The notes under the pieces were generated by a model. That model was not told the origin of the DNA. It saw only the letters and a program-made list of their open reading frames with translations, and ran no database searches. From NCBI GenBank assembly GCA_031414595.1, contig JANNVX010000088.1, forward strand, positions 224,001-288,000: DNA of 64,000 nt. The letters are read 5' to 3'. The DNA is from Deinococcales bacterium (GTDB lineage: Bacteria > Deinococcota > Deinococci > Deinococcales > JAAFIG01). Made by a program: the position numbers and the translations under genes. How positions within the stretch are numbered: position 1 is the stretch's first letter; each line of letters starts with the position of its first letter. Of the stretch, positions 45,256 through 63,688 are shown one piece after another.

Positions 45256-45269
45256 AGGTGAAAGTATAA

Positions 45270-45313
45270 GGGCAAAAGGCAAAAGGCAAAGGTTAAAAGC
45301 AAAACCTTTGCCT
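45270..45313. repeat. (GGCAAAA)n heptamer repeat hairpin
   Basis: gggcaaaaggcaaaaggcaaagg ... cctttgcct. Confidence 0.7.
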
Positions 45314-45323
45314 AAGCTGGTTT

Positions 45324-45758
45324 TTAGCTAAGCGCGTTTTTAATCATCTCAAAAGTCTCGAGACTGATTTCACCACTGGCGAGGCGTTGACGGGCAATTT
45401 TTAAGGCGGGGTCGGACTCATTGCCAATCTCGAGTTGGGTTTTTAAGTCATCAAACTGCTCTGGGGTGATTTCGGACTTGGCAAGGCGGACTCGAGCCGT
45501 ACTGAGGGCATCATCTGACGAATGTTGGGCTTGCCATTTGTTGCGCCATTCGTGCTTGCCTTGTCGCCACATGTCCTTAAATTGTTCGCGTCCGCCCCAC
45601 GCCATAGCCCTTGCGCGTCCACCGTGTTTAAGCCAACGAATCGCGGCAAAAATCAGGGCGATTAAAAAGACAAACCACAGCACCTTAAAAAAACCAGCCA
45701 AGAAAAACCAACCGGGGTCTACCATCTGCATACCACTACGAATTCCATCATTCCACAT
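45324..45758 (-). CDS. membrane protein with two SHOCT domains
   Basis: TM, then ARVRLAKSEITPEQF and ARQRLASGEISLETF; RBS AAGGAG. Confidence 0.85.
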   Translation of the reverse strand: MWNDGIRSGMQMVDPGWFFLAGFFKVLWFVFLIALIFAAIRWLKHGGRARAMAWGGREQFKDMWRQGKHEWRNKWQAQHSSDDALSTARVRLAKSEITPEQFDDLKTQLEIGNESDPALKIARQRLASGEISLETFEMIKNALS

Positions 45759-45802
45759 AAGTAATACTCCTTTCACTCGGATTGTTCTCGAGCGATGTGC
45801 AA

Positions 45803-45857
45803 AGTATGCGCTTAGGCTGTGAAGCCGACCTGCTGCCAATATGAAGTGATTATGAAT
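45803..45857 (-). promoter_or_regulatory. OmpR-type direct-repeat boxes and -10 element
   Basis: TTCATA/TTCATA/TTCACA at 11- and 22-bp phasing, 9 bp upstream of CATACT. Confidence 0.7.
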
Positions 45858-48290: not shown

Positions 48291-48734
48291 ATGAATGCTC
48301 GAGGAGAAATCTATGTGCTGGTGCAGTTTGTGTTACTGTCCTTAATTTTCTTTTTGCCCGAAATGGAAACCTTGCGTTTCCAAGGTTGGGTAATCGGAAC
48401 GATACTAAAATTTCTGGGTTGGGCATTAATACTTTGGGCTGTTGTTTCTTTGGGTAGAAATTTAACGCCACTACCAAAACCAAAGTCTGATGCAAAACTC
48501 ATCACCAGTGGAGCATTTGCTTGGATGCGCCATCCGATTTACACGGGCTTAATACTCTTGACTTTTGGTTCAGCACTTGAACGAGGGCATGGACTGGCTT
48601 TACTGTTTGCGCTGTGTTTAACGGTGTTACTCGAGTTTAAGTCGCGGCGTGAAGAACAATGGTTACTCGAGCAATTTAGCCAATATGCGACGTATCAAAA
48701 ATTAGTTAAGAAATTCATACCTTTAATTTACTAA
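48291..48734 (+). CDS. ICMT/PEMT family methyltransferase
   Basis: LTPLPKP, RHPIYTG, EEQWL. Confidence 0.88.
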   Translation: MNARGEIYVLVQFVLLSLIFFLPEMETLRFQGWVIGTILKFLGWALILWAVVSLGRNLTPLPKPKSDAKLITSGAFAWMRHPIYTGLILLTFGSALERGHGLALLFALCLTVLLEFKSRREEQWLLEQFSQYATYQKLVKKFIPLIY

Positions 48735-51606
48735 GTTGCTTATCTTCAAACACCTCGAGTGTCCCCAAGGCATACTGCATAGCTTCTTTAGGGCTTAAAC
48801 TTTTGGCTTGGGCTTCAAAATGCTGCAACTCTTTAGCACTAAAAAATTTGGCGCTTTGGCTTTCTATGAATTGGTTGGGTTCTAATTCATCTAAATTAAA
48901 ATCCAGTCCAGGTTGGGAGCGCCACACCTTAGAAATCGCGTGGAGTCTAAGTCCTTTTGCATGACGTTGTTGTTGCTGCATAAAAGCGGCACTTAAAGAA
49001 TAGAAACAGGTGTAACAAGCCGCATCTTGAACTTGTGGACAGAGAAGCCCAATTTCTGACAGTAGCTTAGCCAGATCAAGCTGATGACCACGCCTGAACA
49101 TGACATTGCCTAGGGTCAGTAAAGTCGCACAAAGATTTGGTAGGTTTCTGACTTCACGGTAAATAATAATGGCTTGCTCGAGTAGTTTCTGGGCTTCTTC
49201 AAAGTTATTTTGGGTAATGTAGACATACGCATAATTGGCATACCCATTGGCTAAACTGCGCTTGTTGTTACTGGCAAGAGATTTACTAATCAGATTTTTA
49301 AAAGCTCGAGACGACAAATCAATATCGCCGTGCAACCAGTACACAAAAGCCAGTTGATTCAAGCAATCTGTTTCAACATTGATGTTCGGGGTAGCTTGCA
49401 GTAACTCGAGGGCTTTTTGAATACTCGAAATGGCAATTTCGTAATCGCCACTATCACCACGCACCTCGCCGATGGCATGGCGGGCTTTTGCTTCGGCGCT
49501 CAAATCACCGATTTCCAAAGCAATTTCTAATGCTAACTCTGCATCGGCTAAACGAAGCTCGGAATTGACCATCCGAAGCCCAATGACACCGCGAACATAC
49601 AATAAATTGGCTCGAGTTGAATCCCTAACTTGCAAAGCAGGTAATTCAAGCAGGCGGTTCAACCAGTACATACCCATTTGTTTCTTAGCCCCAGCAATCC
49701 AAAAGTAAATCACTGAATAGACAATCCTGGCTGCAACTTGCGGCTGATTCTGTACCGCCCATTCAAGTACCAAAGAGATGTTCTCGAATTCTTGGTCAAA
49801 ATTCCTAATTGCCTCGGCAATAGGTCTTTCGGGATCATGAATCGCCACGCTAATCGCCCAATCCTCTGAAAGTAAACTCAACTCGAGCAGCGCCGCTTCT
49901 TTTTGACTTGGCTCGAGTTGCTGTTCAGCGAACTGCCGAATCACTTCGTGAATAACAAAACGGTTGCCGTTACGAGCAATTAAAGATTTACTGACCAAAC
50001 CAAATAAGATACTGGCACTGGCTTTGGCGACTCGAGCCAAGGATTCTAAAGTAAAACCACCGCGCAACAAACTCAAGGTCGCTAAAACCATTTGCTGTTC
50101 TAAATTTAGCAATTGCCAACTGGCATTGAACACGGCTCGCATGCTGCGATGACGCAATGGCACATCGGGTTGATTGACCGACAAGAAATCCAAGCTCAAA
50201 CGAATTTCTTGCACCACCTCCTCGGGTTTTAAGATTCGCAACCAATGGCTGGCAAGTTCTATTGCAAGCGGCGACCCTTGCAACAACCCACAAATCTGAG
50301 TGATAAAAGGCTTGTCTTTTGGCTCGAGAAAAAAACGCGGATTGACCCGTTTGGCATTGCGTAAAAATAGTTGTACCGAATCAAAAATCTCGATTTGCTC
50401 CGAATCTGCTTTGGGTACATCCAAGCCAAGCACATCCACCAAATACTCAGCTTGAACATTGAGGGTTTCACGGCTGGTGGTTAAAATTCGCAGCTTTGGC
50501 GCAGCCGCTAATAACTCGAGGATGGTTGTGGTTTGCTTGAGCAGATGCTCCATGTTGTCTAGCACCAAGAGCAACTGACTTTGCGATAAATAATTTTTAA
50601 GAAAAACCAATTGCTGCTCTAAGCTCTGGGCGGGTAAATGCAAAGCTGCAATGGTTGCAGCCACAAGGTCATCCACACCAGCCAGAGGCACAAAAACCGC
50701 CCCATCGGCAAAGTTTGGAGCTTGCTCGAGCGCCACTTGAATGGCTAAACGGGTTTTGCCCATGCCGCCAGCCCCAATTAAGGTTAAAAGCCGAACTTGT
50801 GGTTGGACAAACATCGAAGCAATCTCAGATAAATCCACATCCCGACCAACAAAAGATGTGGCTTGAACGGGAAAATTTTGCAATTTTGATTTCTCAAAAG
50901 GCGCGACGACTTTGGTTTCTTTTTGACTTAATTCGGCTGCCAGTTGCAGTGTTGTCTCGAGCGGCGGTAAGCCAAGGTCTTGTTTGAGCATCGTCTTGAA
51001 CGACTCAAAAGCCCTGAGCGCCTCGAGCCGCCCACCTGTTTGAATGGCGCAACTCAGCAGCACTTGCAATACATCTTCGGCTAGTGGGTCGGAGGCTAAA
51101 ACCCGCAAGCAAACCTTTTGCGTCATCTCGAAATTGCTTTCTAGCACCAGTTGCTTGGCGGCGACCAGCGCTGCGTCACGGAAGGCGTTGTGCAGTGCTT
51201 CACGCTCCTGCTCGAGCCAATCAGATAATTCTGGGACATCTGGATGTAAACCATTCAAGAATTGCCCGTGGTACAAATCCAGCGCCTCGAGATGGCAATC
51301 AGAACTAATCAGGGTTTGAAACTGCGCCACATCCGACTGCACCAACCAGCGCACCTGTTCGCCGCTTGACTCGAGGTTGGCAAATTCCAAAGCCCGAACT
51401 CGAGACAGCAAATGGCGCAGATTTTTACGGGCTGCCACCGAATCGGAATCCTCAAAAAAAAGCAGTGCTAGTTGGTCTCGAGACACCCAATCGGACTTAA
51501 ACGCCAAGTATGCAAGTAGTAAAAAACGCTTATCTGACAAGAAAATAACCTCTTTAGTCTCGAGGTTTACCTTGGCAGTGCCTAGCAATTGAACGGTAGG
51601 AAGCAT
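48715..51606 (-). CDS. STAND regulator 2: wHTH/BTAD + NB-ARC + TPR (AfsR/SARP-like)
   Basis: LLAYLA..WVSRDQLA, DPLAE, FVGR, GAGGMGKT, LDNMEHL, GSPLAIELA, TPR tail. Confidence 0.92.
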   Translation of the reverse strand: MLPTVQLLGTAKVNLETKEVIFLSDKRFLLLAYLAFKSDWVSRDQLALLFFEDSDSVAARKNLRHLLSRVRALEFANLESSGEQVRWLVQSDVAQFQTLISSDCHLEALDLYHGQFLNGLHPDVPELSDWLEQEREALHNAFRDAALVAAKQLVLESNFEMTQKVCLRVLASDPLAEDVLQVLLSCAIQTGGRLEALRAFESFKTMLKQDLGLPPLETTLQLAAELSQKETKVVAPFEKSKLQNFPVQATSFVGRDVDLSEIASMFVQPQVRLLTLIGAGGMGKTRLAIQVALEQAPNFADGAVFVPLAGVDDLVAATIAALHLPAQSLEQQLVFLKNYLSQSQLLLVLDNMEHLLKQTTTILELLAAAPKLRILTTSRETLNVQAEYLVDVLGLDVPKADSEQIEIFDSVQLFLRNAKRVNPRFFLEPKDKPFITQICGLLQGSPLAIELASHWLRILKPEEVVQEIRLSLDFLSVNQPDVPLRHRSMRAVFNASWQLLNLEQQMVLATLSLLRGGFTLESLARVAKASASILFGLVSKSLIARNGNRFVIHEVIRQFAEQQLEPSQKEAALLELSLLSEDWAISVAIHDPERPIAEAIRNFDQEFENISLVLEWAVQNQPQVAARIVYSVIYFWIAGAKKQMGMYWLNRLLELPALQVRDSTRANLLYVRGVIGLRMVNSELRLADAELALEIALEIGDLSAEAKARHAIGEVRGDSGDYEIAISSIQKALELLQATPNINVETDCLNQLAFVYWLHGDIDLSSRAFKNLISKSLASNNKRSLANGYANYAYVYITQNNFEEAQKLLEQAIIIYREVRNLPNLCATLLTLGNVMFRRGHQLDLAKLLSEIGLLCPQVQDAACYTCFYSLSAAFMQQQQRHAKGLRLHAISKVWRSQPGLDFNLDELEPNQFIESQSAKFFSAKELQHFEAQAKSLSPKEAMQYALGTLEVFEDKQLSKLKV

Positions 51607-51660
51607 CGTCAGGGGAAAGTTTAACAGCTTTTGGTGGGCAGCATCGCACCGAATAACCCA

Positions 51661-51708
51661 TGCAACGCTGGTCATGCGACGCTCATGCGACGCACCGTTT
51701 TGCATACT
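51661..51708 (+). promoter_or_regulatory. SARP-type box promoter
   Basis: TGCAACGC 51661, TGCGACGC 51675 and 51686, 9-bp spacer, CATACT 51703. Confidence 0.75.
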
Positions 51709-51762
51709 ACCGCATCGCTCGAGGGCAAGACCAAAATAACAAGACTCGAGTTCGGAGGCTGT

Positions 51763-52206
51763 ATGAAAAAGTGGTTTTTAATCTTGGTGGCAGTATTGGG
51801 TTTCTCGAGCTTGGCTGGCGCACAAAAATTCTCGGTTGGTGGCGGGCTAACCAGCCAATTCCAAAGTGGTTTTGTGCTTGGTTTTGGCATTAACTTAGGC
51901 GTAGAGAACTTAGTAAAATTCAGCAAGGACTTTGGCTTAGATGCTCGAGTTGACCTCGAAGGTACGTTCCTACCTGGTGGCTTGTCGCTCCTTGGTAGTC
52001 TAGCGGTTTTAGGGTCTTATCAAATTGATGATCTTGATATTTACTTTGGACCTCGGTTGTCTTACGGTTCGGCTTTTGGCTTTGGTGCATTGATCGGATT
52101 GCGCTTTGATTGGACAAGCACATTTGGGACGTACATCGAAACCAGATTTCTCTTTACCCCAGCTTTTGATTACCAAGCCGCCCTCGGCGTTCGCATCCTG
52201 CTCTAA
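51763..52206 (+). CDS. small outer-membrane beta-barrel protein
   Basis: Signal peptide AGA-Q, amphipathic Gly/aromatic strands; RBS GGAGG. Confidence 0.78.
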   Translation: MKKWFLILVAVLGFSSLAGAQKFSVGGGLTSQFQSGFVLGFGINLGVENLVKFSKDFGLDARVDLEGTFLPGGLSLLGSLAVLGSYQIDDLDIYFGPRLSYGSAFGFGALIGLRFDWTSTFGTYIETRFLFTPAFDYQAALGVRILL

Positions 52207-52216
52207 GCCCTCATGA

Positions 52217-52246
52217 CAAGGCTCGAGACCCCTAACTCGAGCCTTG
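52217..52246 (+). terminator. stem-loop after the beta-barrel gene
   Basis: caaggctcgag-N8-ctcgagccttg. Confidence 0.6.
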
Positions 52247-52276
52247 AATTCAAAAGCCCAGAAAAAAAGGAGAGCC

Positions 52277-52420
52277 ATGTTAGACAACCTCAATCTTGTT
52301 TTCCCTATTTCCACAAACCGTGAAACCAGACTCGAGCCTGACATGGCTCGAGAACAGACGGTACAACCGCACCCAGCCGATAAAATCAGCCTTCAAACAG
52401 GTTATTGGCACGCGGTTTAG
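52277..52420 (+). CDS. 47-aa small ORF
   Basis: RBS AAGGAG; MLDNLNLVFPISTNRETRLEPDMAREQTVQPHPADKISLQTGYWHAV. Confidence 0.45.
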   Translation: MLDNLNLVFPISTNRETRLEPDMAREQTVQPHPADKISLQTGYWHAV

Positions 52421-52502
52421 CAAATTATTTCTTGGTGCAATTTGGCACGTTTTGAAGACCCATTGACCCTAAACCCTCTTTCGATTTTACTAGGAGAATC
52501 AT

Positions 52503-52796
52503 ATGGAATACATTACTCGCTTCAGACTCAAACCCAATAAAGCCGAAGAATTTCGCCAGTGGCTCTTAGACAACCATGACAAGCTCGTGGCTACTATGCC
52601 CGAGGGCTGAACGTATTTCACTTTACGTGGTTTTGGCGAATACCACTGCGAAAGCCGTTGGGAGCTAACAGGTTATGGCGCATTGGCTAACCCTTTCCGT
52701 GATCCAATCCATGGTGAAGTCGGTGAGTTGTTTTCTGACCAGTCCTATCCCGATGAAGTGACCCTGCTCAGAAAAGTGCATCCGAAGTCCGCATAA
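52503..52796 (+). pseudogene. small gene interrupted by an in-frame TGA
   Basis: RBS AGGAG; MEYITRFRLKP...MPEG[TGA 52608]TYFTLRGFGEY...; frame stays open to TAA 52796. Confidence 0.65.
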
Positions 52797-52817
52797 AACA
52801 GTGTAGTCAAGTGATTC

Positions 52818-52840
52818 GTAGGGTGGGGTTTTTGTCCACC
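52818..52840. repeat. degenerate GTAG-type REP
   Basis: gtagggtggggtttttgtccacc. Confidence 0.5.
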
Positions 52841-52904
52841 TTTCTCGAGACACAAAACCAAGCCCACTTTCTGATCCACTTTCTGATCCACAAGGAGAAT
52901 CATC

Positions 52905-53225
52905 ATGAATAAGTACCTAATTAAACTCAATTACACTGGCGAAGGAATCAAAGGAGTCATTGCCGAGGGCGGCTCGAGCCGCAAAGCAGTGGCTGAAGCG
53001 CTGGTGAAATCGGTTGGAGGATCGCTTGAATCAATGTATTTTGCTTTTGGCGAAACGGATGTTTATGGCATTGCCAGTCTTCCTAGTCACCATGCCGCCA
53101 TTGCCGTGTCAGGTACTTTGAACGCCACTGGACGAGTCACCTGCTCGGTTACGCCTTTAATTACGGTTGAAGAGATGGATGAAGCCGTCAAACTCAGCCC
53201 TGTTTACCGCGCACCAGGGCAGTAA
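52905..53225 (+). CDS. GYD domain protein
   Basis: YTGEGIKG..GGSSR, GGSLESMYFAFGETD, YRAPG. Confidence 0.88.
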   Translation: MNKYLIKLNYTGEGIKGVIAEGGSSRKAVAEALVKSVGGSLESMYFAFGETDVYGIASLPSHHAAIAVSGTLNATGRVTCSVTPLITVEEMDEAVKLSPVYRAPGQ

Positions 53226-53227
53226 AA

Positions 53228-53746
53228 ATGGCAAGACTTGCGTTTGCCAATATCGCTATTTTACGGCAACCCTTCGGCGACCCTCAAGTGCGCGGTTTTG
53301 AAGAGCGTATTAACAGTGTCTTCGAGGTTGCCAATGACAGTCATGGGTTTGTGCTATTACACGATAACCCTGCCGACATTCCCGATATGTTTCGCGCCCC
53401 CGAATTTGCGGGTCGGGTGGCTCAGAACCTCTCCGAGTGGCAAAATCTCGAGTCGGTGATGGCGTATGCCTATGGTGGTTTGCACGGCGAAGCCTTCGCC
53501 AAACGCAAGGAATGGTTTGAGCAAGGCTCGTTTCCCAGTTCTGTGGCGTGGTGGGTCGAAGATGACCAACCAGTCACTTGGCAAGAAGCACATCGGCGTT
53601 ACGAACTGATTTACCACCAAGGCTCGAGTCCAGAAGCATTTAATTTGAAGCAGGCATTCACACCTGATGGAAGTCCTTACGCGATTGACCGTGAGATGGT
53701 GAAAAAAATTGGGCTTGAAAATCAGTCCCGCAGCAAAAATTTGTAG
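53228..53746 (+). CDS. DUF3291 family protein
   Basis: NLSEWQNLES..AYAY.GLH..AFAKRKEWF, AWWV, GSSPEAF. Confidence 0.85.
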   Translation: MARLAFANIAILRQPFGDPQVRGFEERINSVFEVANDSHGFVLLHDNPADIPDMFRAPEFAGRVAQNLSEWQNLESVMAYAYGGLHGEAFAKRKEWFEQGSFPSSVAWWVEDDQPVTWQEAHRRYELIYHQGSSPEAFNLKQAFTPDGSPYAIDREMVKKIGLENQSRSKNL

Positions 53747-53768
53747 GGTGGGCAAAGCCCACCTTACA
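53742..53768. repeat. GTAG-type REP palindrome
   Basis: tgtagggtgggc-aaa-gcccaccttaca. Confidence 0.75.
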
Positions 53769-53786
53769 CCCTCGAGTCTCGAGAAA

Positions 53787-54383
53787 TCAGTTCAGCATTG
53801 CCACCAAAATCCCAAGAATCTCGGGCAGTTCCTCTAAATCATAAGACCGATTGTCCACGGTCAAAACGTTTTGCTCGAGATGCAAGAATTGCCAAGAATT
53901 GCCAATGGTTACAGCCCCGTAGACTCGAGTTTGTGCTTTTCCTTCGCGCTGGTTATAAATTTGGGTCGCCACCATTTCGGCGGTTGCTTGGGCAATGCCT
54001 TGTTTGAAATTCTCGTTCTTGGCTTCCACTACGACTAAAACAGGCGCTTCTAAGTAAAGTTGCTGTGTGGACTTAGAAAAAAGAAAATCGCAAATACCAA
54101 TCAAGCCTTTTTCTGCATCCACATTAAATTCCACGCCACTAAAAACCGAAACTTGGTCATGCACTAGGGCGCGAACCTCGAGTAAAATTGGGGCAATTAT
54201 AAATTCGCTTCGGGCTTTTTCGGTGTTCTGCTTGACCGCCACTGCCACACCACGCTCAAGAATGTAGGTCAGGGCAGAGGAGGGCTGGATGGGCGTAAAA
54301 GCAAGTTCTAAGGGCTGGTTATCAATCAGGTGTAAATCGAATTTTTTAATCACTGTTGGTAGATTGAAATTGCTGTATGCCAT
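53787..54383 (-). CDS. PD-(D/E)XK-like hypothetical protein, paralog of 22880-23479
   Basis: MAYSNF, TEKARSEFIIAPIL, CDFL, VEAK, AEMVATQ. Confidence 0.82.
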   Translation of the reverse strand: MAYSNFNLPTVIKKFDLHLIDNQPLELAFTPIQPSSALTYILERGVAVAVKQNTEKARSEFIIAPILLEVRALVHDQVSVFSGVEFNVDAEKGLIGICDFLFSKSTQQLYLEAPVLVVVEAKNENFKQGIAQATAEMVATQIYNQREGKAQTRVYGAVTIGNSWQFLHLEQNVLTVDNRSYDLEELPEILGILVAMLN

Positions 54384-54456
54384 GAAATTAGTCTAGTTGG
54401 TTTGATGCTAAGTTTTATAAAGATTTTGCTACAATGACACAATCAATAAGGAGTTT

Positions 54457-54846
54457 ATGAAAGCAATCCTTCAATCTTGGAAGAATGTCAAACTCGAGCA
54501 GCTATCCCCACTTATCATGCGGCGTTACATTCACGGACAGCAGGCGATGGTTGCCAGTTTTGAGCTAAAAGCAGGCGCGGTTGTGCCTTGGCACGAACAC
54601 GCCAATGAGCAAATCAGTCTTATACTCGAGGGACGAGTGCGGTTTTTGTATAAAAACGGAGACAAACAGCATTCGTTTGAAGCTGTTTCAGGCGATACTG
54701 TGGTGATTCCCGGTGGAGTTCCACATTGTGTTGAAATTATCGAAGATTCGCGGGCGTTTGATGTGTTTGCACCACCTCGAGAGGATTGGATTGCAGGTGC
54801 GGATACCTATTTGCGCGACCCAGCAAAGCATGAGGAACCTGTTTGA
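54457..54846 (+). CDS. cupin domain protein
   Basis: PWHEHANEQ, IPGGVPH, DVFAPPRED. Confidence 0.9.
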   Translation: MKAILQSWKNVKLEQLSPLIMRRYIHGQQAMVASFELKAGAVVPWHEHANEQISLILEGRVRFLYKNGDKQHSFEAVSGDTVVIPGGVPHCVEIIEDSRAFDVFAPPREDWIAGADTYLRDPAKHEEPV

Positions 54847-54856
54847 AAGGAAAACC

Positions 54857-54916
54857 ATGTTGGACTACTTTGCCGCTTCACCCAAACACCATAAAGTACC
54901 TCGAGTCTACTCATGA
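54857..54916 (+). pseudogene. 5' remnant of a paralog of the 56009 cupin-like gene
   Basis: RBS AAGG; MLDYFAASPKHHKV vs MLNHLDAVAAAPEHHKV. Confidence 0.65.
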
Positions 54917-54920
54917 ATTG

Positions 54921-55874
54921 TTAAAGGCTGGTCAACAAATGTTTTCGCAATGCAGCGATTTGTGATTTTCGGAAATCCTGAACCACTCCAAGCTGAGGGT
55001 CAAAAACATCAAAACCATGAAACGCACCTGCAACCACGACCACTTCAACTTCGATACCACAGGCTTGTAATCGCTTGGCATACACAAGGTCTTCGTCATG
55101 AAAAACATCCAATGAACCGACACCAATCCAAGCTGGTGGTAGATTTGACAGGTCTTCTCGGCGGGCTGGAACAGCATAGGCAGGTATGTCTTTTGTTCCA
55201 CACGAAACTCCCAAATAACTTTCCCAACCAAATTGATTGCTTTTTTGCGTCCAGGTCACATTGTTGCTGTCGTCAATTGCTGAGCGCAGAACAGTTTTAT
55301 CATCAAGCATTGGGTAGACAAGCAATTGAAAAGCCACTTTGTATTGCTGACGGTCATAAATAAGTTGCACCAAGGCTGCGGCAAGTCCACCGCCAGCACT
55401 CGCACCGCCAATCGCAATGCGATTTGGGTCTACACCAAGTTCTCGAGCCTGTGAAACCACCCAGGTTAAGGCAGCGTAGCAGTCGTGTAACCCAATAGGA
55501 AAAGGATACTTTGGTGCATAACGGTAATCCACTGAGACCACTGTGATTCCCAATTCTTGAACATACCAAGAACAACACCCATCATCTTGTTCTGGTTTAC
55601 CGACCACAAAACCGCCGCCGTGCATCCAAATCAGCACAGGGGAAGGTGTTGTAACAGTTTTGGATTTGTAGACACGCAAACGAATCTTTGCTGGCTCAGA
55701 TTCTGTGGGGATAAAAATATTTTTAATCAAAACATCTTGGGGAATTTTAGCTAAAGGCATCAAAGACATCAACAAACGCATCAGCCACAGGTTTTTCTTG
55801 TTGAAATCAAACATAGGACTTCGTTTTGCGATTTGTACAAGGTCTGGATGTATTTTAGAAAAATCTTTTTTCAT
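54921..55874 (-). CDS. alpha/beta hydrolase (HSL-type esterase)
   Basis: HGGGF, GASAG, AFHGF. Confidence 0.92.
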   Translation of the reverse strand: MKKDFSKIHPDLVQIAKRSPMFDFNKKNLWLMRLLMSLMPLAKIPQDVLIKNIFIPTESEPAKIRLRVYKSKTVTTPSPVLIWMHGGGFVVGKPEQDDGCCSWYVQELGITVVSVDYRYAPKYPFPIGLHDCYAALTWVVSQARELGVDPNRIAIGGASAGGGLAAALVQLIYDRQQYKVAFQLLVYPMLDDKTVLRSAIDDSNNVTWTQKSNQFGWESYLGVSCGTKDIPAYAVPARREDLSNLPPAWIGVGSLDVFHDEDLVYAKRLQACGIEVEVVVVAGAFHGFDVFDPQLGVVQDFRKSQIAALRKHLLTSL

Positions 55875-56008
55875 GCTTCAAAACACTCCAAATTAGCTCT
55901 AGATTTATATACTACCCTAGAAGGAGTTCATCAACGCCAAACTGTTGGTCAAGTAAAATCGCTCTTTCACCCTCGAGATAACTCGAGAAGCCACTGAACA
56001 GGAGAATC

Positions 56009-56338
56009 ATGCTAAATCACCTTGATGCTGTTGCCGCCGCACCCGAACATCATAAAGTCCTGCTCGAGAATGACCAAATTCGAGTTCTTGAGACGTTGCT
56101 GCGACCTGGTGAAGAAACGGCAGTTCATACCCACATTTGGTCTGGATTTTTGTACATCATTTCTTGGAGCGATTTTATTCGTTACGACGAACATCGCAAT
56201 ATCATGATGGATTCGGCACGTATGACCAACACGCCAATTCCAGGCACAGCCATTCCAGCCGCGCCAATTCCGCCACATTCATTGCGAAATGTTGGCACTG
56301 AAAATATCCATGTGATTCTGACTGAATTTAAGGCATAA
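56009..56338 (+). CDS. cupin-like protein
   Basis: HKVLLENDQIRV, HTH, HSLRNVG; RBS AGGAG. Confidence 0.85.
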   Translation: MLNHLDAVAAAPEHHKVLLENDQIRVLETLLRPGEETAVHTHIWSGFLYIISWSDFIRYDEHRNIMMDSARMTNTPIPGTAIPAAPIPPHSLRNVGTENIHVILTEFKA

Positions 56339-56359
56339 GCTCTAGCTAGGGCTGATATT

Positions 56360-56406
56360 GTGCAGGTTCCCCATGCGACGCTGGTGCGACGCTCGAAACT
56401 TATACT
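56360..56406 (+). promoter_or_regulatory. SARP-type box promoter, 47-bp direct repeat copy 1
   Basis: TGCGACGC 56374 and 56385, 8-bp spacer, TATACT 56401; 45/47 identical to 60672-60718. Confidence 0.85.
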
Positions 56407-56427
56407 GATGGGGTAAAGGAGAACACA

Positions 56428-56865
56428 ATGGCAAACGAAACAGTCAAAATCGTGGTTTCTAAGGATGGCAAGTGGCTCGAGACAGCAGAAGGTATGGCAC
56501 TGTATTACTTTGAGCCTCAGATTCAAGACCCTTTTCATGAAAAAATTCCTTGGATGGACAATATGTACCCGTTCACCGATTGGATGAAGAAATGGAATCC
56601 ATTGGTGGGTGTACCTGAATTTGAGGCGAACTATGCTTTTGATGTAGTGACACAAAAAGATTTTGGGTATGCAACTCGAGAAGGTGGTCCTGAAGACAAA
56701 GGCAAACAGATTTTATTTAGAAATTGGTATTTGTATACTTATAAGCCAGATGAAAGAGCCACCATTTACGGCGAAATTTTAGGACTGTGGAGACTTACTC
56801 CTGCTGATCTGAAAATGCTGACTGGCAAAATGTGGAACGATCAGAAAATCGGTGCAGGACCTTAA
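56428..56865 (+). CDS. COG4315-like Yx(FWY)xxD-motif protein without signal peptide
   Basis: GMALYYFE, WNPL, DFG..TREGG, KQILF..WYLYTYKPD, GLW. Confidence 0.65.
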   Translation: MANETVKIVVSKDGKWLETAEGMALYYFEPQIQDPFHEKIPWMDNMYPFTDWMKKWNPLVGVPEFEANYAFDVVTQKDFGYATREGGPEDKGKQILFRNWYLYTYKPDERATIYGEILGLWRLTPADLKMLTGKMWNDQKIGAGP

Positions 56866-56870
56866 AAATA

Positions 56871-57671
56871 ATGTATGTAACTGCCAAAAATTTCTACCCA
56901 CAGATACTACAAACCTTTGACCGTAAGTCTAATCAACTTGTTTGGACAGAAGGATTACAGTTTTATGATGGAAAGCTCTATGAAAGCTCTGGACTTGGAA
57001 CAATCGAATCTTGCTCGAGCTTGCAACAACTCGAGTTTGACGAATCAACAATGGAAGTTATTATGCGTCAGCATTTTGATTTACCAAAACCTATTTTTGC
57101 CGAAGGATTGACCAGAATTGACAAAACGCTCTTTCAATTGGTCAAGGATAACAGTAGCGTGTTGACTTATAGCCTCGAACCGTTCAAACAAACAAGTGTT
57201 CGATTGGGTGCAACCCCTGGCGTCGAACGTCGCTGGGGGTTATGTTTTGACCCAAAGAAAATGGTTTTGTACCTGAGTGATGGTACGTGTGTCTTAACAC
57301 TTTACGCTCAAAGTCAATCTGCACAAATGTCGTTTGACCAACCCATTGGGTTGCTCGAGGTGACACTCAATGGCGAACCAGTTGGTTTTCTGAATAGTTT
57401 GGAATTCGCAAACGGTTTTATTTACGCTTCTGAAACAGCAAATTGGGCGCAAAGTAATCGCATTCTAAAGATTGATCCAAATACGGGTACTGTGGTTGCT
57501 GATATTGATGCTCAGAACCTTCGCAATCAACTTCATTCAGACAAAGCTGAAGACTTAAATGGCGTTGCATACGCATATAGCCTGCTTGAGGATAACGTAG
57601 AAGTATTTTTCGTAACTGGTAAATTTTGGTCAAAAATTTTTAAGGTTATATTTGTTCCAAAAGAATCATAA
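56871..57671 (+). CDS. glutaminyl-peptide cyclotransferase family protein (type I, divergent)
   Basis: WTEGL..LYESSG, FAEGL, WGLC, SDGT, LNSLE, LNGVAY, VTGKFW. Confidence 0.85.
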   Translation: MYVTAKNFYPQILQTFDRKSNQLVWTEGLQFYDGKLYESSGLGTIESCSSLQQLEFDESTMEVIMRQHFDLPKPIFAEGLTRIDKTLFQLVKDNSSVLTYSLEPFKQTSVRLGATPGVERRWGLCFDPKKMVLYLSDGTCVLTLYAQSQSAQMSFDQPIGLLEVTLNGEPVGFLNSLEFANGFIYASETANWAQSNRILKIDPNTGTVVADIDAQNLRNQLHSDKAEDLNGVAYAYSLLEDNVEVFFVTGKFWSKIFKVIFVPKES

Positions 57672-60620
57672 AGACATTGGATTCTCTAGAATTCCCATAA
57701 TCGCATTGTGCAATTCCAGATCAAGATTGAACTCTATTGGTGGCGATAACTCGGGCGATTCTTCGAGCAAAATATTTGCTTCACGTCTTGAGCTTTCATC
57801 TGTTGATGGATGATGATTGACAATATGCAAGAATTCGCTTGCTTGGCTAGTATTTCCAAGTTTGATATGCAATTCACTTAATCCAACTAAATTTTGCATA
57901 ACAATCGGTAATTCATGGACGCTCCAAGCAATTTTGAGACTCTTTTGAAAGTATTGAATGGCTTCGGGTATCATTTTTTTTGCTATTGAAACTCTCCCAA
58001 GTATCATGAAAGAAGTGGCTCTGACAGTGGAGTTTGAGAGTTGTTCATTGGTGGTCAGCGCTTCGAGACAAAAATCTCGAGCTTTTTCGTATTCTTTGGT
58101 TTTAAGTGTTAAATTCCCTAAGTTATTCAGTAAGAAAGAAATAGCTTGAGTATATTTAATCTCTTGCGCCAATTCTAAGCCATTAGTTAAATATTTTCTA
58201 GCTTGTGAAAAATCTGCTAAATTCATTTTAAGTAATCCAAGATTGTTGTAAATAATCACACAACCAAATTGATTATTTAATATTTTGTGAATTTCAAGCG
58301 CATCAAAATAATGCTCTTGAGCCTTTTGAATTAATCCTAGGTTATTTTCAATATCACCAATTCTACTTAAATAATTGGCTATTGCATCTTGATGCTTTAA
58401 GCTCTTTGCCAACATTAAAGCTTTTTCAACGTTTTCAAGTGCCTTCTGATTATCTCCTATTTGCTCTGCTATCATTGAAAGTGTGTTTAACGCTTTCATC
58501 AACCAACCACCATGCTTATTATTATCCTCGAGCGGTTGCAACAACTGCACAGCGCGTTCAGCCAATGCCATGTCGTACCGCCCAATTCGGTGTCCTAACC
58601 ATGCGATTTCATAACTCGCTTTGCCTAGGACAGCATTGGCATTTGTCGTGGCTGTTTCTAAAGCTGTAACTGCTGCTTCAAACAATTCTATTCCTTCGGC
58701 GCATCTGGCTTTGCGGTCAAAAAACACCACCAGGTCGGTTGAGCGCTCGAGTTGCAAATAATCTTTTTGCGAGGCAGCAAAGTACCAAGCCGAACGGATG
58801 TTCTCGAGGTCTGATTCGATTTGGCTTAAATACTGCTGGTCGGTGCTGCCACCCATTGGGCGCTGCTCGATAAAAGCAAAGTAATAATCGCTGTGCTTGG
58901 TTTGTTGGGCTTGTTGTAATTCTGGTTCGGAGCGCAATTTCTCAAAACTCAGTTCTTGGATCATCGCATGGCGCTCGAAGCGTCCGTTGCTACCGCGTTG
59001 CAATAAACTTTTGTTACACAGTCGCAACAGCGTCTGCACGCTGATTGTGGCAATGCTTTCGGCGGCTTCTTTGGTAAAACCATTTTGAAACACCGAGAGT
59101 TTTTGTAAGGCATTTTGTTCGGTCTGGTTGAGTTGCCGCCAAGTGTATTCAAACACCGCTCGCAGACTGCGGTGACGCTCGGGCAGTTCGGCTTGGGTGC
59201 TTTCTAAAAATCCCAGTCCTTGCTTTAATTGTGCCACAATTTCTTCTAAACTCAGCACTCGAGTCCAATGGCTGGCAAGTTCTAAAGCCAGTGGTAAACC
59301 GCCCAAAAACTGGCAAATCTGAACCATAAAGTCGTGCTGGGCTGCTTCTAAGCTAAAGCGTGAATTGGTTTTCTTGGCACTGCGAACAAAAAGTTGTACC
59401 GCATCAAACATTTCAAAATTCGGGGTGTTGGCAGTTGGGACTGCCATGCCAAAGACATCCAGTAAATACTCGTTTTGCCTGTCCAGCACCTCACGGGATG
59501 TCACCAGCATTTTGAGTTTCGGGCAGTCATGCAGCAACTCGAGCAGCAGATCCGTGCCATCCAGCAGATGCTCGAGGTTATCGGCAACCAGCAGCATTTC
59601 TTGGTCTTGCAAATGCGTTTTTAATTTCTCCAAAGCGGTTTCGGGGTTGGTCAGTGGCAACTCCAAGACGGCAAACAGCGCAGGTAAAATTTGCACTGCA
59701 CTCGAGAGGTTAGCAAGGGCAATAAAAGTTGCACCATCTTCAAACCGACCCGCCATTTGAAAAGCAGTTTGGATTGCCAAACGGGTTTTGCCAATGCCAC
59801 CCTGCCCAACCAGTGTTAAAAGCCGAATATCTGGCGATAAGAGCTTGGTTTGGATTTCCTCGAGTTCGCGCTCACGTCCAATAAAAGCTGTGTTAATTGC
59901 AGTAAAACCACGCAACTTGGCAATTGGCTCGAGGTCCAAAGGTGTATTTTTGAGTTGCTGATACAACAGCCGTGTGGACTCGAGCGGTTGTAAACCCATT
60001 TCTTGTTTCAGTAAACGATTGAAGGTTTCAAAGGCAGCCAACGCCGAACTTTGTGTGCTTTTTTGACGGCTGGCAAAACGCAAAAAGGCTTGCAGCACAT
60101 CCTCGGCTAACGGCTCGAGGCGCAACGCTTGTCCGAAAACCGCCGTTGTTTGGGCAATCTGCGAACTGGCTTCGAGTTGAGTGGTGAACGCCAGCGTTGC
60201 TTCTTTGAACGAATTTTTGAGGGTTTCTTGTTCGACCTCAAGCCAAGTTATAAATTCTGGCAAATCTAAACTAAACCGCTCGAGCAGCAAACCCGTGTAC
60301 CATTGTACGGCGCTTTGCCAATCAGCTGCCGCAAAAGCACGGTTAAACTCAAGGACATCAGAATTAACTGCCCAGCGCACCAGATTGTCATTCGTCTCGA
60401 GTTTAGCAAAATCAAGCTCACGCACCCTTGAGAGCAGATGCCGTAAGTTCTTGCGGCTATCTTGTGAATCTGCAAAAAAAATCAGTGCCAAATGGTCCCT
60501 GGAAACCCAATCGGTTTGCAATGCCAAGTACGTCAGCAAAGCAAAACGCTTATCGGAAAGGAAAACAACACTTTGCGACTCGAGTGTTGCTTTAGCGACT
60601 CCGAACAGATGCAAAAACAT
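57666..60620 (-). CDS. STAND regulator 3: wHTH/BTAD + NB-ARC + TPR, paralog of regulator 2
   Basis: FLSDKRFALLTYLA..WVSRD, EPLAE, FIGR, GQGGIGKT, DNLEHL, GLPLALELA, TPR repeats. Confidence 0.92.
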   Translation of the reverse strand: MFLHLFGVAKATLESQSVVFLSDKRFALLTYLALQTDWVSRDHLALIFFADSQDSRKNLRHLLSRVRELDFAKLETNDNLVRWAVNSDVLEFNRAFAAADWQSAVQWYTGLLLERFSLDLPEFITWLEVEQETLKNSFKEATLAFTTQLEASSQIAQTTAVFGQALRLEPLAEDVLQAFLRFASRQKSTQSSALAAFETFNRLLKQEMGLQPLESTRLLYQQLKNTPLDLEPIAKLRGFTAINTAFIGRERELEEIQTKLLSPDIRLLTLVGQGGIGKTRLAIQTAFQMAGRFEDGATFIALANLSSAVQILPALFAVLELPLTNPETALEKLKTHLQDQEMLLVADNLEHLLDGTDLLLELLHDCPKLKMLVTSREVLDRQNEYLLDVFGMAVPTANTPNFEMFDAVQLFVRSAKKTNSRFSLEAAQHDFMVQICQFLGGLPLALELASHWTRVLSLEEIVAQLKQGLGFLESTQAELPERHRSLRAVFEYTWRQLNQTEQNALQKLSVFQNGFTKEAAESIATISVQTLLRLCNKSLLQRGSNGRFERHAMIQELSFEKLRSEPELQQAQQTKHSDYYFAFIEQRPMGGSTDQQYLSQIESDLENIRSAWYFAASQKDYLQLERSTDLVVFFDRKARCAEGIELFEAAVTALETATTNANAVLGKASYEIAWLGHRIGRYDMALAERAVQLLQPLEDNNKHGGWLMKALNTLSMIAEQIGDNQKALENVEKALMLAKSLKHQDAIANYLSRIGDIENNLGLIQKAQEHYFDALEIHKILNNQFGCVIIYNNLGLLKMNLADFSQARKYLTNGLELAQEIKYTQAISFLLNNLGNLTLKTKEYEKARDFCLEALTTNEQLSNSTVRATSFMILGRVSIAKKMIPEAIQYFQKSLKIAWSVHELPIVMQNLVGLSELHIKLGNTSQASEFLHIVNHHPSTDESSRREANILLEESPELSPPIEFNLDLELHNAIMGILENPMSL

Positions 60621-60646
60621 TGGTAGAAACCATTTTAACAGCTTTT

Positions 60647-60718
60647 GGTGCAGGTTTCCCATGCGACGCTGGTGCAGGTTTCCCATGCGACGCTGGTGCG
60701 ACGCTCGAGACTTATACT
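60647..60718 (+). promoter_or_regulatory. SARP-type box promoter with 24-bp tandem duplication, direct repeat copy 2
   Basis: ggtgcaggtttcccatgcgacgct twice; TGCGACGC 60662, 60686, 60697; TATACT 60713. Confidence 0.85.
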
Positions 60719-60740
60719 TAAAAATGCAAAGGAGCAAACA

Positions 60741-61154
60741 ATGAAAGATTCACCCAGCCTCGAGATTGCCATAGCCCAAAGCCATGCCGCACTTAGTGCA
60801 ATCCTAACGGGCGACCCAACATTGTTCCAATCCTTGTATTCCAAATCAGAGGATATTACCCTCGGCAATCCTTTTGGACCATTTGCTCGAGGTCAACAAG
60901 AAGTCAGGACAAGGCTGGCTGGTGCAGCCGCCAATTACCGAGATGGCAAAGTAACTGAGGTTGAACGCTTTGCCAATTACATTTCGAGCGATTTTGCTTG
61001 TGTTGTTGAAGTTGAACGCAGTCAAGCCAAAGTTGGCGGTAGCGCAGAACTGGTTTCAATCGCTGTTCGTGTGACCAGTGTTTTTACTAATGGCTGGAAG
61101 CTGGTGCATCGGCACGCTGACCCAATCACAACACCTGTCCAGCATCATCGGTGA
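60741..61154 (+). CDS. SnoaL/NTF2-like protein
   Basis: DITLGNPFG, RVTSVF..GWKLVHRHADP; RBS AAGGAG. Confidence 0.85.
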   Translation: MKDSPSLEIAIAQSHAALSAILTGDPTLFQSLYSKSEDITLGNPFGPFARGQQEVRTRLAGAAANYRDGKVTEVERFANYISSDFACVVEVERSQAKVGGSAELVSIAVRVTSVFTNGWKLVHRHADPITTPVQHHR

Positions 61155-61173
61155 TAAGCCTTTAGGAGAATTT

Positions 61174-62412
61174 ATGTCCGAACCTACATCCGTTGCTGCC
61201 GAACGTAAATACGATCTCTACAGCCAAACCACCAAAGACAATCCGTATCCAGTCTTTGCTCAGATGCGCCGCGAGAACCCTGTGTATTCGCAACTTGGGC
61301 TTAATGGCGAAACCAAAATTTGGTTTGTGACCCGTTATGAAGATGTTCAGTACATTCTCCATCACGACGAACTTTTTGTCCGAGATGCCAAAAACGCCTT
61401 GCCCACCGATAAAGTGCCGCAGCCCAGCCCCCTCGAGGCACTGATGTTCAATCATATGCTGAACAAAGATGGCGACGAACACCGCCGTTTACGCACGTTG
61501 GTTAGTCAGGCATTCACCCCGTCTCGAGTGCGTGATTTGCGTCCTCGAGTCCAAGCGATAAGCGATGAACTGATTGCAGCCGTTCAAGCCAAAGGGCAGA
61601 TGGATTTAATTACCGATTATGCTTTTCAACTCCCCACCATTGTGATTTCTGAAATGCTGGGTATTCCCACCCAAGACCGTGAACATTTTAAGCAGTGGAC
61701 TGAAGCCACCATCGCGCCTGCCTTAACCCCAGAAGCCCAAGCTAAGGCAGGAGCATTGATTCAAGAATTTGCGGCATACTTGGGCGAATTGTTTGCGGCA
61801 CGGCGTAAACAGCCACAAAACGATTTGATTTCGGCATTGCTCCAAGCAGAGGAAGCTGGCAATCAGCTTTCCGAGTCCGAACTGTATAGCACGGTTGTTT
61901 TGCTGATTATTGCTGGGCATGAAACCACGGTCAACCTGATTGGCAATTCGACTCTGGCACTCTTGCGTTTCCCCGAAGCTCGAGCAACCTTGCAACAGCA
62001 TCCCGAAAAAATGGCTGGCGCATTGGATGAGTTTTTGCGTTACGACAGCCCTGTGGAACGGTCATTCTCGAGGTGGGCGGCTACGGACACCGAACTCGGC
62101 GGGCAGCAAATCAAACAAGGAGATTTGGTCATGGGAATTCTTGGGGCAGCCAATCACGACCCAGAGAAGTTCCCTAACCCAGAAGTGCTTGACTTATCAA
62201 AGGATGCAAAACGGCAATTGGCTTTTGGGCATGGAATGCACTTTTGTCTTGGAATGCCACTGGCTCGGCTCGAGGGTGAAATCGCCCTGAATTCGTTGTT
62301 GCAAAACCTGCCGAATTTGCGGCTTGGAATCGGCGAAGAAGAACTGACTTGGCGTACAGTCCCAATGTTTCGTGGGGTCAAACAATTCCCAGTGGTGTGG
62401 GACAACCTGTGA
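61174..62412 (+). CDS. cytochrome P450 (CYP107-like)
   Basis: AGHETT, EFLR, FGHGMHFCLG. Confidence 0.95.
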   Translation: MSEPTSVAAERKYDLYSQTTKDNPYPVFAQMRRENPVYSQLGLNGETKIWFVTRYEDVQYILHHDELFVRDAKNALPTDKVPQPSPLEALMFNHMLNKDGDEHRRLRTLVSQAFTPSRVRDLRPRVQAISDELIAAVQAKGQMDLITDYAFQLPTIVISEMLGIPTQDREHFKQWTEATIAPALTPEAQAKAGALIQEFAAYLGELFAARRKQPQNDLISALLQAEEAGNQLSESELYSTVVLLIIAGHETTVNLIGNSTLALLRFPEARATLQQHPEKMAGALDEFLRYDSPVERSFSRWAATDTELGGQQIKQGDLVMGILGAANHDPEKFPNPEVLDLSKDAKRQLAFGHGMHFCLGMPLARLEGEIALNSLLQNLPNLRLGIGEEELTWRTVPMFRGVKQFPVVWDNL

Positions 62413-62936
62413 AACCAATTTTTTTAATTATGGGAACACCTGCTTCGGGCAAAAGTACAGTTGCCAAAGCCTTAATGCAGCGCTTTGCACAAGGCGTGCA
62501 TATTCCCGTGGATAACCTACGCCAAATGGTTGTGTCTGGCTTGTCCGACATGGCTTTGGAAGTTCCACCTGCCACCCTTGAGCAGTTGCGTTTGGCTCGA
62601 GAAACCGCTTCGAGCATGGCACGGATTTATTCGGATAACGAATTTACAGTTGCCATAGATGATTTTTGGTACAGCGAAAAACCCGACCAAGTGTACAGCC
62701 AAAAAATTGGACAACGCATCACACGGATTTTATTGCTCCCGAACCTCGAGACGACAGTGCAGCGCTTATACTCGAGAAACCCAGAGGAAGGTAGCTTTAA
62801 GAAAATACTCGAGCAAGCCATTGGGTATTTGTACACCCAAATCGAAGTGCATCCAAAAACAAATTGGTTGGTGATTGACTCGAGTGATTTAAGTATAGAA
62901 GAAACTGTGGATAAAATTCTTGCAGGATGGACATAA
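62409..62936 (+). CDS. P-loop kinase/phosphotransferase (AAA_33-like)
   Basis: GTPASGKST; GTGA overlap with the P450. Confidence 0.82.
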   Translation: MKPIFLIMGTPASGKSTVAKALMQRFAQGVHIPVDNLRQMVVSGLSDMALEVPPATLEQLRLARETASSMARIYSDNEFTVAIDDFWYSEKPDQVYSQKIGQRITRILLLPNLETTVQRLYSRNPEEGSFKKILEQAIGYLYTQIEVHPKTNWLVIDSSDLSIEETVDKILAGWT

Positions 62937-63053: not shown

Positions 63054-63290
63054 ATGATTGCCACAGCCAAGCTATTTAAGAACGGACGCAGCCAAGCAGT
63101 GCGCTTACCTAAAGAATTTCGTTTTGAAGGCACAGAAGTGCAAATCGAAAAAGTCGGTGATAGCATTGTTTTAACCCCTAAAAAGAAAAAATGGGACAAT
63201 CTGCTGGCTGCCCTCGAGATGTTTGAAGGAGAAATTGAACGAAATCAACCACCTGCCCAAGAACGAGATTGGGGTGAATTGTGGAAATAG
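63054..63290 (+). CDS. vapB: AbrB-type antitoxin
   Basis: AKLFKNGRSQAVRLPKEFRF. Confidence 0.92.
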   Translation: MIATAKLFKNGRSQAVRLPKEFRFEGTEVQIEKVGDSIVLTPKKKKWDNLLAALEMFEGEIERNQPPAQERDWGELWK

Positions 63291-63688
63291 AGTGGATGCT
63301 CGATACCAATATCTGTATTTACCTAATCAACAACAAACCCAAAAAAGTCAGGCAAATTCTCGAGCAGCACGATAATAATCAAATCACACTTTCTAGTCTT
63401 GTCGTTTTTGAATTGCAATATGGTGTAGATAAAAGTGTGTCCAAAGCAAAGAATGGATTGGCACTCGAGATTTTTCTGCGTGATTTTGAAATAAAAACTT
63501 TTTCGGGAATCGCTGCAACGCGAGCCGCAAGCATTCGCGCTGAACTTGAAAGCAAAGGTACTCCAATTGGGGCTTACGATTACTTGATTGCGGCTCATGC
63601 CCTCGAGCTAAATGCAACACTTGTCACCAATAACATCAAAGAATTTGAGCGCATCGAAGGCTTAAAGCTCGAGAACTGGTTCGCTTAG
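63281..63688 (+). CDS. vapC: PIN-domain toxin
   Basis: MLDTNICIY, GTPIGAYD.LIAAHA, LVTNN.KEF. Confidence 0.93.
   Translation: MEIEWMLDTNICIYLINNKPKKVRQILEQHDNNQITLSSLVVFELQYGVDKSVSKAKNGLALEIFLRDFEIKTFSGIAATRAASIRAELESKGTPIGAYDYLIAAHALELNATLVTNNIKEFERIEGLKLENWFA

Follow-up and report, generated by a model that had tools for sequence, protein, structure and literature searches.

A putative 11-bp direct-repeat operator linked to one recognition-helix clade of large SARP regulators in Deinococcota

The closest described system to the genes treated here is AfsR of Streptomyces coelicolor (structures 8K60, 8HVR and 8JKE), whose afs box consists of 11-bp repeats contacted in their first 8 bp and not in the final 3, the 3′ repeat lying 8 bp from the −10 element; in SARP targets more broadly, direct repeats have a period of 11 or 22 bp, and some 8 bp separate the 3′ one from the −10 (PMC10936776). 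The NOD and TPR parts of AfsR inhibit its SARP domain, ATP relieves the inhibition (PMC10936776; PMC10972967), and a latch histidine controls it (bioRxiv 10.64898/2026.09.02.748808). The present analysis concerns two paralogous regulator genes of this kind, and the direct repeats beside them, in a stretch of 64,000 nucleotides (the window, G000:C88:224001-288000) of contig JANNVX010000088.1 from a Deinococcales bacterium with a genome of 4.49 Mb and 47% GC. The repeats, TGCGACGC-N3-TGCGACGC, are a putative operator that, judged from sequence, belongs to regulators with the recognition helix RKNLRH(L/I)xxR and not to STAND genes generally.

PolY and RslR3, two cluster-situated large SARPs, are likewise SARP-NB-ARC-TPR proteins of about 1000 amino acids with direct repeats that overlap the −35 region (PMC10972967). 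They control actinomycete biosynthetic clusters, whereas the operators described here head small accessory operons and genes for secreted proteins in Deinococcota. EmbR of Mycobacterium tuberculosis (2FEZ) has the same SARP fold, but with an FHA domain and without NB-ARC and TPR. MalT and the ligand-activated STAND activator GutR are also one-component activators switched through a helical-repeat sensor; the DNA-binding domain of MalT is C-terminal and LuxR-type, and neither MalT nor GutR is known to use this operator. The architecture, the promoter logic and the AfsR type of mechanism are already known from Streptomyces; the novelty lies in the operator, in its confinement to a single helix clade and in a series of paralogue-specific operators. 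No description of SARP/BTAD operators in Deinococcus, Meiothermus or Deinococcota was found in the open-access literature searched, subscription journals and RegPrecise-type databases being outside the scope of that search.

Two AfsR-like regulators and the repeats beside them

An earlier sequence-only reading of the window had described regulators 1 and 2 (Table 1) as paralogous BTAD-NB-ARC-TPR genes with similar N-termini and dissimilar TPR tails, and both points held. A domain scan gave BTAD above cut-off and TPR matches in both proteins; in the centre, regulator 2 matches NB-ARC, and regulator 1 has AAA-type matches below cut-off together with a Walker A motif. The two are 48% identical over the N-terminal 230 amino acids and 37% over 838 aligned columns, and their arm/TPR parts align with weak similarity only, forming two lineages, each of which has relatives with an RKN(L/F)RHL helix. 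The recognition helix RKNLRHLLSR (residues 55-67) is identical in both, so that different sensors are joined to one DNA-binding helix. Regulator 1 is 75% identical to the regulator of locus L037, whose opposite gene encodes the same barrel-like protein as in the window. The alignment also contains the STAND features Walker A (GxxGxGKT), a Walker B-type hhhhDNxEH and an invariant His551 at the MHD-like latch position.

With AfsR the regulators share the layout, a winged helix-turn-helix (wHTH) domain followed by BTAD, NOD, arm and TPR, as well as the SARP fold. A model of regulator 2 residues 1-230 (predicted local distance difference test score 96) has AfsR (8K60/8HVR) and EmbR as its sole fold matches at E<=0.001, AfsR being found by Foldseek at E 5e-8, and a profile built from 22 N-termini of the same genome matches AfsR at E 3e-13. 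The latch histidine of AfsR is conserved too, in the context IHE/RHA in the window proteins against F/Y-HD in AfsR. Identity to AfsR is 17-19%, however, the repeat sequence differs, and the AfsR equivalog NF053617 (NCBIfam) gives 61.2 and 50.6 bits against a cut-off of 1430. By analogy the regulators would act like AfsR, yet they are not its orthologues. An OmpR-type wHTH followed by BTAD, NB-ARC/NOD plus TPR and a length of about 1000 amino acids place them among the large SARPs, and at the level of sequence their promoters agree, with 11-bp direct repeats of which the 3′ one lies about 8 bp ahead of the −10. None of the 17 window proteins scanned is a core biosynthetic enzyme for polyketides, non-ribosomal peptides or ribosomally synthesized and modified peptides, which leaves the regulators outside the cluster-situated type. 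AfsR is one global regulator with AfsS and antibiotic clusters as targets; here about 30 paralogues occur per genome with clade-specific operators, and the targets are of neither kind.

The window holds three TGCGACGC-N3-TGCGACGC pairs, and no others even with two mismatches allowed, against 0.02 expected from shuffled sequence. Each is followed by a −10-like YAnnnT hexamer and by a GGAGG/AAGGAG ribosome-binding site ahead of the ATGs at 51763, 56428 and 60741, just as the sequence-only reading had it, and its proposal of a SARP/AfsR-type geometry was borne out by the 11-bp period, the 8 conserved bases and the 8-9 nt to the −10, which are those of the afs box. The promoters at 56374 and 60686 are 85% alike over 71 nt and, being near-copies, are not independent instances. 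A sigma70 −35/−10 scan matched none of the three operator promoters, and terminator and sigma70 scans gave numbers at background level only. The copy number of the 24-bp half-site repeat that ends in operator 3 varies, from 2.2 in the window to 5 in L259 (L259:16858-16985); such variation could tune the promoter or result from slippage. About three degenerate copies of this repeat lie at C67:34861 of the source genome. In 8 distinct homologous loci a perfect inverted half-site precedes the pair by 14-15 nt and, speculatively, may serve autoregulation.

The sequence ttaacagctttt, which had been taken as common to the upstream regions of both regulators, is indeed shared, but it is not part of the operator: it is what the probable −10 regions of the two regulator genes give when read on the opposite strand. 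For the same reason ttaacagcttttggtg was rejected as a second operator: it fits the regulators' own −10 region instead. In many other paralogues the start comes 5-8 nt after a −10 box (by eye), which fits the leaderless pattern of the phylum (PMC4007540, PMC12340547).

Table 1. Features of the window, with unlinked operator sites in the last row
Feature	Position	Strand	Remarks
Regulator 1, wHTH-BTAD-NB-ARC-arm-TPR, large SARP/STAND	48715..51606	-	963 amino acids; helix RKNLRHLLSR; Walker A GAGGMGKT
Own −10 box of regulator 1, TAAACT	51618..51623	-	probable, from sequence; 11 nt before ATG; aligned in homologues
Degenerate extra half-sites	51641..51668		strand undefined; inverted GCATCGCA 51641-51648, TGCAACGC 51661-51668
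Operator 1, TGCGACGC-TCA-TGCGACGC	51675..51708	+	boxes 51675/51686, pair 51675-51693; N9; −10 CATACT at 51703
Small outer-membrane beta-barrel-like protein	51763..52206	+	N-terminal signal-like stretch
47-codon open reading frame (ORF), MLDNLNLVFP...	52277..52420	+	by eye; also downstream of operator in L052
ORF broken by one in-frame TGA	52503..52796	+	good ribosome-binding site; probable pseudogene
GYD-domain gene, DUF3291 gene	52905..53746	+	same order after operator in L058
Cupin_2	54457-54846	+	without own operator
Alpha/beta hydrolase	54921-55874	-	without own operator
109-amino-acid ORF	56009-56338	+	no Pfam match; without own operator
Operator 2, TGCGACGC-TGG-TGCGACGC	56374..56406	+	boxes 56374/56385, pair 56374-56392; N8; −10 TATACT at 56401; near-copy of operator-3 promoter
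Lipoprotein_15/COG4315-like ORF	56428-56865	+	behind operator 2
Glutaminyl cyclase (Glu_cyclase_2)	56871-57671	+	convergent on regulator 2
Regulator 2, wHTH-BTAD-NB-ARC-arm-TPR	57666..60620	-	984 amino acids; helix RKNLRHLLSR; Walker A GQGGIGKT
Own −10 box of regulator 2, TAAAAT	60632..60637	-	probable, from sequence; 11 nt before ATG
24-bp tandem repeat	60646..60699	+	2.2 copies; one TGCGACGC half-site per unit; operator 3 ends it
Operator 3, TGCGACGC-TGG-TGCGACGC	60686..60718	+	boxes 60686/60697, pair 60686-60704; N8; −10 TATACT at 60713
SnoaL/DUF4440-like	60741-61154	+	behind operator 3
Cytochrome P450	61174-62412	+	matches all below equivalog cut-offs
AAA_33/CPT-like P-loop kinase-like protein	62409-62936	+
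Unlinked TGCGACGC loci	C56, C67, C86; C88:191883

Operator and recognition helix across Deinococcota

In the source genome, 23 proteins match BTAD and 47 match a custom N-terminal profile; among the 30 whose upstream regions were read, the TGCGACGC pair stands beside two, both being the window genes. In 163 regulator-centred loci (L087-L249) from 24 other Deinococcota genomes, taken as at most the best 30 per search, it occurs in five, four of them with RKNLRHLLSR, the fifth being L225, where the pair lies 1.2 kb away. The expectation that the motif would be enriched beside BTAD-STAND genes generally thus failed. The link to these two regulators, by contrast, held: among 36 homologue loci, which include 16 non-Meiothermus RKNLRHLLS-type and 6 Meiothermus-type loci, the pair lies within the divergent gap in 12 of the 16 (L032, L033, L036 and L037 are counted both here and among the five). 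In close helix relatives the pair instead follows directly after the regulator stop, namely in L046 (RKNLRHLIGR), L058 (RKNLRHLVQR), G069 (RKNLRHLLAR) and G151 (RKDLRHLLGR). No upstream pair was seen in the six Meiothermus-type loci, of which those other than L042, L053 and L055 end early; L042 has a looser version of the operator downstream.

Across the phylum, TGYGACGC pairs are present in 30 of 301 genomes (reversed control, 3 matches). Of the 9 other genomes in the window's family, 7 have YGCGACGY/YGCGACGC pairs, and in the four other families the counts are 3/112, 3/62, 0/14 and 33/103 genomes; in the YGCGACGC pair search, the reversed control matches often outside the window's family. 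In the complete one-contig genome G255 the clade is represented only by a truncated protein of 279 amino acids, and there is no YGCGACGC pair; in G259 neither a clade member nor a pair was found. On a plasmid of Allomeiothermus silvanus DSM 9946 (NC_014213.1), the regulator MESIL_RS18805 is followed by CGCGACGC-TCA-CGCGACGC-N9-CATACT and an ABM-GYD-SRPBCC operon; this plasmid was left out of the counts, as it may duplicate a genome already included.

Other paralogues of the source genome face outward-pointing 11-bp repeats of other sequences, that is, TGAAACGC (2 genes), TATAACGC, TTTACGCC, TTCTACRT and the low-complexity TTTCACGG. The repeats of sister clades, TGAAACGC, GGCTACGC, TTTACGC and GTGACGC, keep the ACG core and the geometry. 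Counted by hand, ACR-N8-ACGB-N8/9-YAnnnT occurs within about 350 nt upstream at 25 of the 163 loci, in divergent orientation at 20 and on the same strand at 5; this pattern matches 15 times elsewhere in these loci, which corresponds to about one expected per orientation. Five of the 20 divergent loci repeat loci already seen, and L129, L142, L212 and L220 have a poor first box.

The repeat sequence changes together with the helix. Helices of the ALRLI type (RNALRLIFHR, LSALRLILHR) go with TGAAACGC, RRNLRQRLYR with GGCTACGC (L097, L127, L166), ATSLRMALGQ with TTTACGC, the LR(I/M)LL(H/N)R helices RHQLRILLHR and LHAVRMLLNR with TGAGACG, and the LRQ(E/D)xxx helices RRNLRQELWR (L196), RKNLRQDVYR (L164) and RHRLRQELYR (L250) with GTGACG. 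Single cases are SGNLRRELHR with GTAACGC, REHLRGLLKR with AGCCACGC, LHNLRQALLE with TTTGACG and RRNLRKILFK with AGGAACG. For an out-of-sample comparison, 19 genomes of the family were searched for the TGAAACGC and GGCTACGC words (12 and 10 matches), and of six new sites examined, four adjoin a regulator whose helix is either the expected one or related to it: an RNALRLIFHR and an RNGLRLILHR regulator are each faced by an TGAAACGC site, another site follows an LRQLRVILSR regulator, and an RRNLRQRLYR regulator is faced by an GGCTACGC site. The fifth site comes after a TPR gene whose head falls outside the available sequence, and the sixth is unlinked.

A further class, TGTGACG pairs, always with N8, has six sites in the source genome (C1:26179, C16:179, C37:22445, C37:70592, C64:3199 and C86:41690) and is found in 15 of 18 other genomes of the family; LRQE-type or LRQLLYR-type paralogues are candidate regulators. 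Several observations concern these sister systems. In L338:1501-2093 the gene opposite an RRNLRQRLYR regulator is globin-like and has an GGCTACGC operator in front of it, and the regulator at C18:139929 of the source genome likewise has a globin-like ORF upstream. In genus g8 (L250:351-3781), G121 and G281 have one N-terminal SARP gene each (about 1080 amino acids) and 2-5 TGTGACGC pairs, which offers a simple setting in which to assign the TGTGACGC regulon; in G055, a pair after the stop of this SARP gene heads a leaderless 58-amino-acid ORF. At C1:22753-26169 of the source genome, a kinase-led gene of 1138 amino acids without wHTH faces an TGTAACGC/TGTGACGC operator.

A number of points weigh against so close a link between helix and operator. 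Four of the 16 clade homologues have no divergent pair (L039, L040, L041 and L034, the last with only 125 nt upstream), and L053/L055, a single locus with the same helix, has none within 4-kb flanks. One site occurs in G272, in which no close member of the clade turned up, and in G183/G246 the −10 box is present at only 5 of 10 sites. The YGCGACGC count of the GC-rich family f5 is partly due to chance, because the reversed control also matches there, and the related genomes counted are not independent of one another. The RRNLRQLLSR regulator of L236 has upstream TATCACGC repeats and not TGCGACGC, and LRQLLYR helices go with both TTCTACGT and TGTGACGG; on account of these two cases, a simple single-residue recognition code found no support.

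Predicted regulon and proposed mode of action

The source genome contains 64 single copies of TGCGACGC and eight pairs at a spacing of 11, with at most one pair at any other spacing from 6 to 40. The eight pairs form seven loci, all with YAnnnT at N8 or N9, so that the predicted regulon comprises the three window promoters and four unlinked loci. These last head genes for a clostripain-family (C11) peptidase, a subtilase (S8), a 772-amino-acid protein and a tandem array of proteins of about 240 amino acids, the latter two without Pfam match; all four products begin with signal-like stretches (by eye). Leaderless targets have their ATG 6-7 nt after the predicted −10. Relatives of the 772-amino-acid and array targets adjoin clade regulators in L046 (by eye) and L031 (37% identity). 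The array, at G000:C86:49400-53000 (L384:162-215, 1837-1901), consists of four paralogous secreted-looking genes. Two of its promoters carry a TCTCACG/TGTGACG pair 35 nt ahead of the TGCGACGC pair, and this stacking suggests two inputs on one gene.

Since the 8+3+8 geometry with N8-9 is that of AfsR and no sigma70 match was found, inducer-gated activation is proposed: regulators 1 and 2 are probably AfsR-type large SARP activators of the STAND class that act at these operators. By analogy to AfsR, each would be auto-inhibited at rest through its NB-ARC and TPR parts and released when the arm/TPR senses an inducer. Two SARP domains would then sit next to each other on YGCGACGC-N3-YGCGACGC, which takes the place of the −35 element, and bring RNA polymerase to the −10 box that follows after 8-9 nt. 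The RKNLRH(L/I)xxR clade would read this operator and sister clades NNNN-ACG(C) variants with other first four bases; as the operator words differ in these bases, the roughly 30 paralogues of a genome would be largely insulated from each other. Because regulators 1 and 2 share the helix and not the sensor, two signals probably converge on one regulon, and a reasonable, if not strong, expectation from the shared helix is that both read the same operators.

The alternative that survives best, although unlikely, is that each regulator serves only its adjacent promoter or promoters, kept apart by spacer or by N8/N9, and that the unlinked sites answer one of them. It draws on the TCA/N9 arrangement of the regulator-1 site against TGG/N8 at both regulator-2 sites, and on the differences between the two wHTH domains outside the helix (48% identity). 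The regulator-2 orthologue of L031, however, is flanked on either side by N9 sites, of which one has a TCA-like spacer, the unlinked sites mix TCA, TGA and TGG spacers with N9, and the final 3 bp of each repeat are bases that AfsR, in the source cited above, leaves uncontacted. Less probable again is the view that some copies (56374, the 24-bp units and the unlinked sites) are functionless by-products of promoter duplication or slippage: the 56374 and 60686 promoters are nearly identical and the 24-bp unit ranges from 2 to 5 copies, but the unlinked sites retain both boxes and the −10 spacing despite diverged flanks, and equivalent sites head homologous genes in other genomes.

OmpR/PhoB-type response regulators also use 11-bp repeats. 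Binding of the repeats by such a factor, with the SARP link reduced to shared cassette ancestry, agrees with the presence of a SARP gene within 1.5 kb at only 3 of 30 motif loci across the phylum, with an OmpR-like two-component pair at 43409-45282 of the window (family by eye) and with the unassigned owner of the TGTGACG class, but it is the least credible of the alternatives, as the repeat sequence shifts with the SARP helix across many clades, the repeat stays with the SARP gene whether upstream or downstream, and G255 has a truncated clade member and no pair, and G259 has neither. The genes of that two-component pair, an OmpR-like response regulator and a histidine kinase, are in line with a gene for a SHOCT-like membrane protein (43409-45839, by eye).

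Target genes and their meaning

The sequence-only reading had regarded the genes behind the window operators as an accessory patchwork. This description was not upheld: besides the extension of the predicted regulon to unlinked loci, the window targets (GYD, DUF3291, SnoaL, P450, kinase-like, barrel) recur as a set in other genomes. The barrel gene recurs in L037 and L050; its product matches neither Pfam nor NCBIfam, and its Atlas neighbours at 0.96-0.97, one of them an OMP_b-brl cluster, are a lead only. GYD stands behind an operator in L058, G069 and G151, followed in L058 by a DUF3291-like gene, and in the window the GYD and DUF3291 genes are presumably co-transcribed from operator 1. The SnoaL-P450-kinase trio is also found behind an operator in L259, and P450-kinase with its own operator in L261. 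L031 has a kinase-like gene alone behind a degenerate operator opposite the regulator, as well as a 43%-identical Lipoprotein_15-like gene, again behind an operator and convergent on the regulator-2 orthologue. The glutaminyl cyclase gave no DNA-similarity match in 20 relatives searched. Homologues of the 54457..56338 genes occur near this regulator clade in L032, L037 and L259, and the operators of other clade members point at ORFs of 40-60 amino acids.

In L032:591-3800 an operator heads a small ORF, a pyridoxal-phosphate-dependent decarboxylase-like gene, a DUF4188-like gene, a homologue of the 56009 ORF, SnoaL and a P450 remnant (by eye), a gene set hinting at an aromatic-amine or related substrate. 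At 63055-63688 the window has an antitoxin-like ORF and a PIN-domain gene (vapBC-like), and similar pairs adjoin the same cassette in L259 and L261. Short tandem repeats also occur at 52864-52891 (12 bp, just ahead of the GYD ribosome-binding site), 53883-53905 (10 bp) and 56230-56276 (15 bp).

On the output side, proteins with modifying or binding roles inside the cell (GYD, DUF3291, SnoaL-like, P450, kinase-like) would be made together with proteases for export and proteins of the envelope. Tentatively, this combination may be an answer to antagonism or to small molecules that are toxic.

The activation mechanism itself is unsurprising to a specialist. The activating signals of AfsR-like STAND activators are mostly not known, however, and SARP operators have been studied mainly in actinomycetes. 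A series with one geometry and variable specificity would permit regulon prediction for dozens of unannotated regulators of 1000 amino acids per genome, and it offers a direct test of how a winged helix changes specificity, along with reporters to hunt for inducers. The arrangement on NC_014213.1 makes the claim testable at the bench in a cultured strain. More tentatively still, the NLR-like SARP sensors of Deinococcota may have been expanded into a modular switchboard, with about 30 per genome, a variable four-base word before a fixed ACG core, heads and tails re-paired in evolution, distinct signals that can converge on one regulon, and clade operators that can be stacked on one gene, as on C86. 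If this is true, the wiring would be readable from sequence, and each regulator-operator pair would be a ready reporter for the inducers of bacterial STAND sensors.

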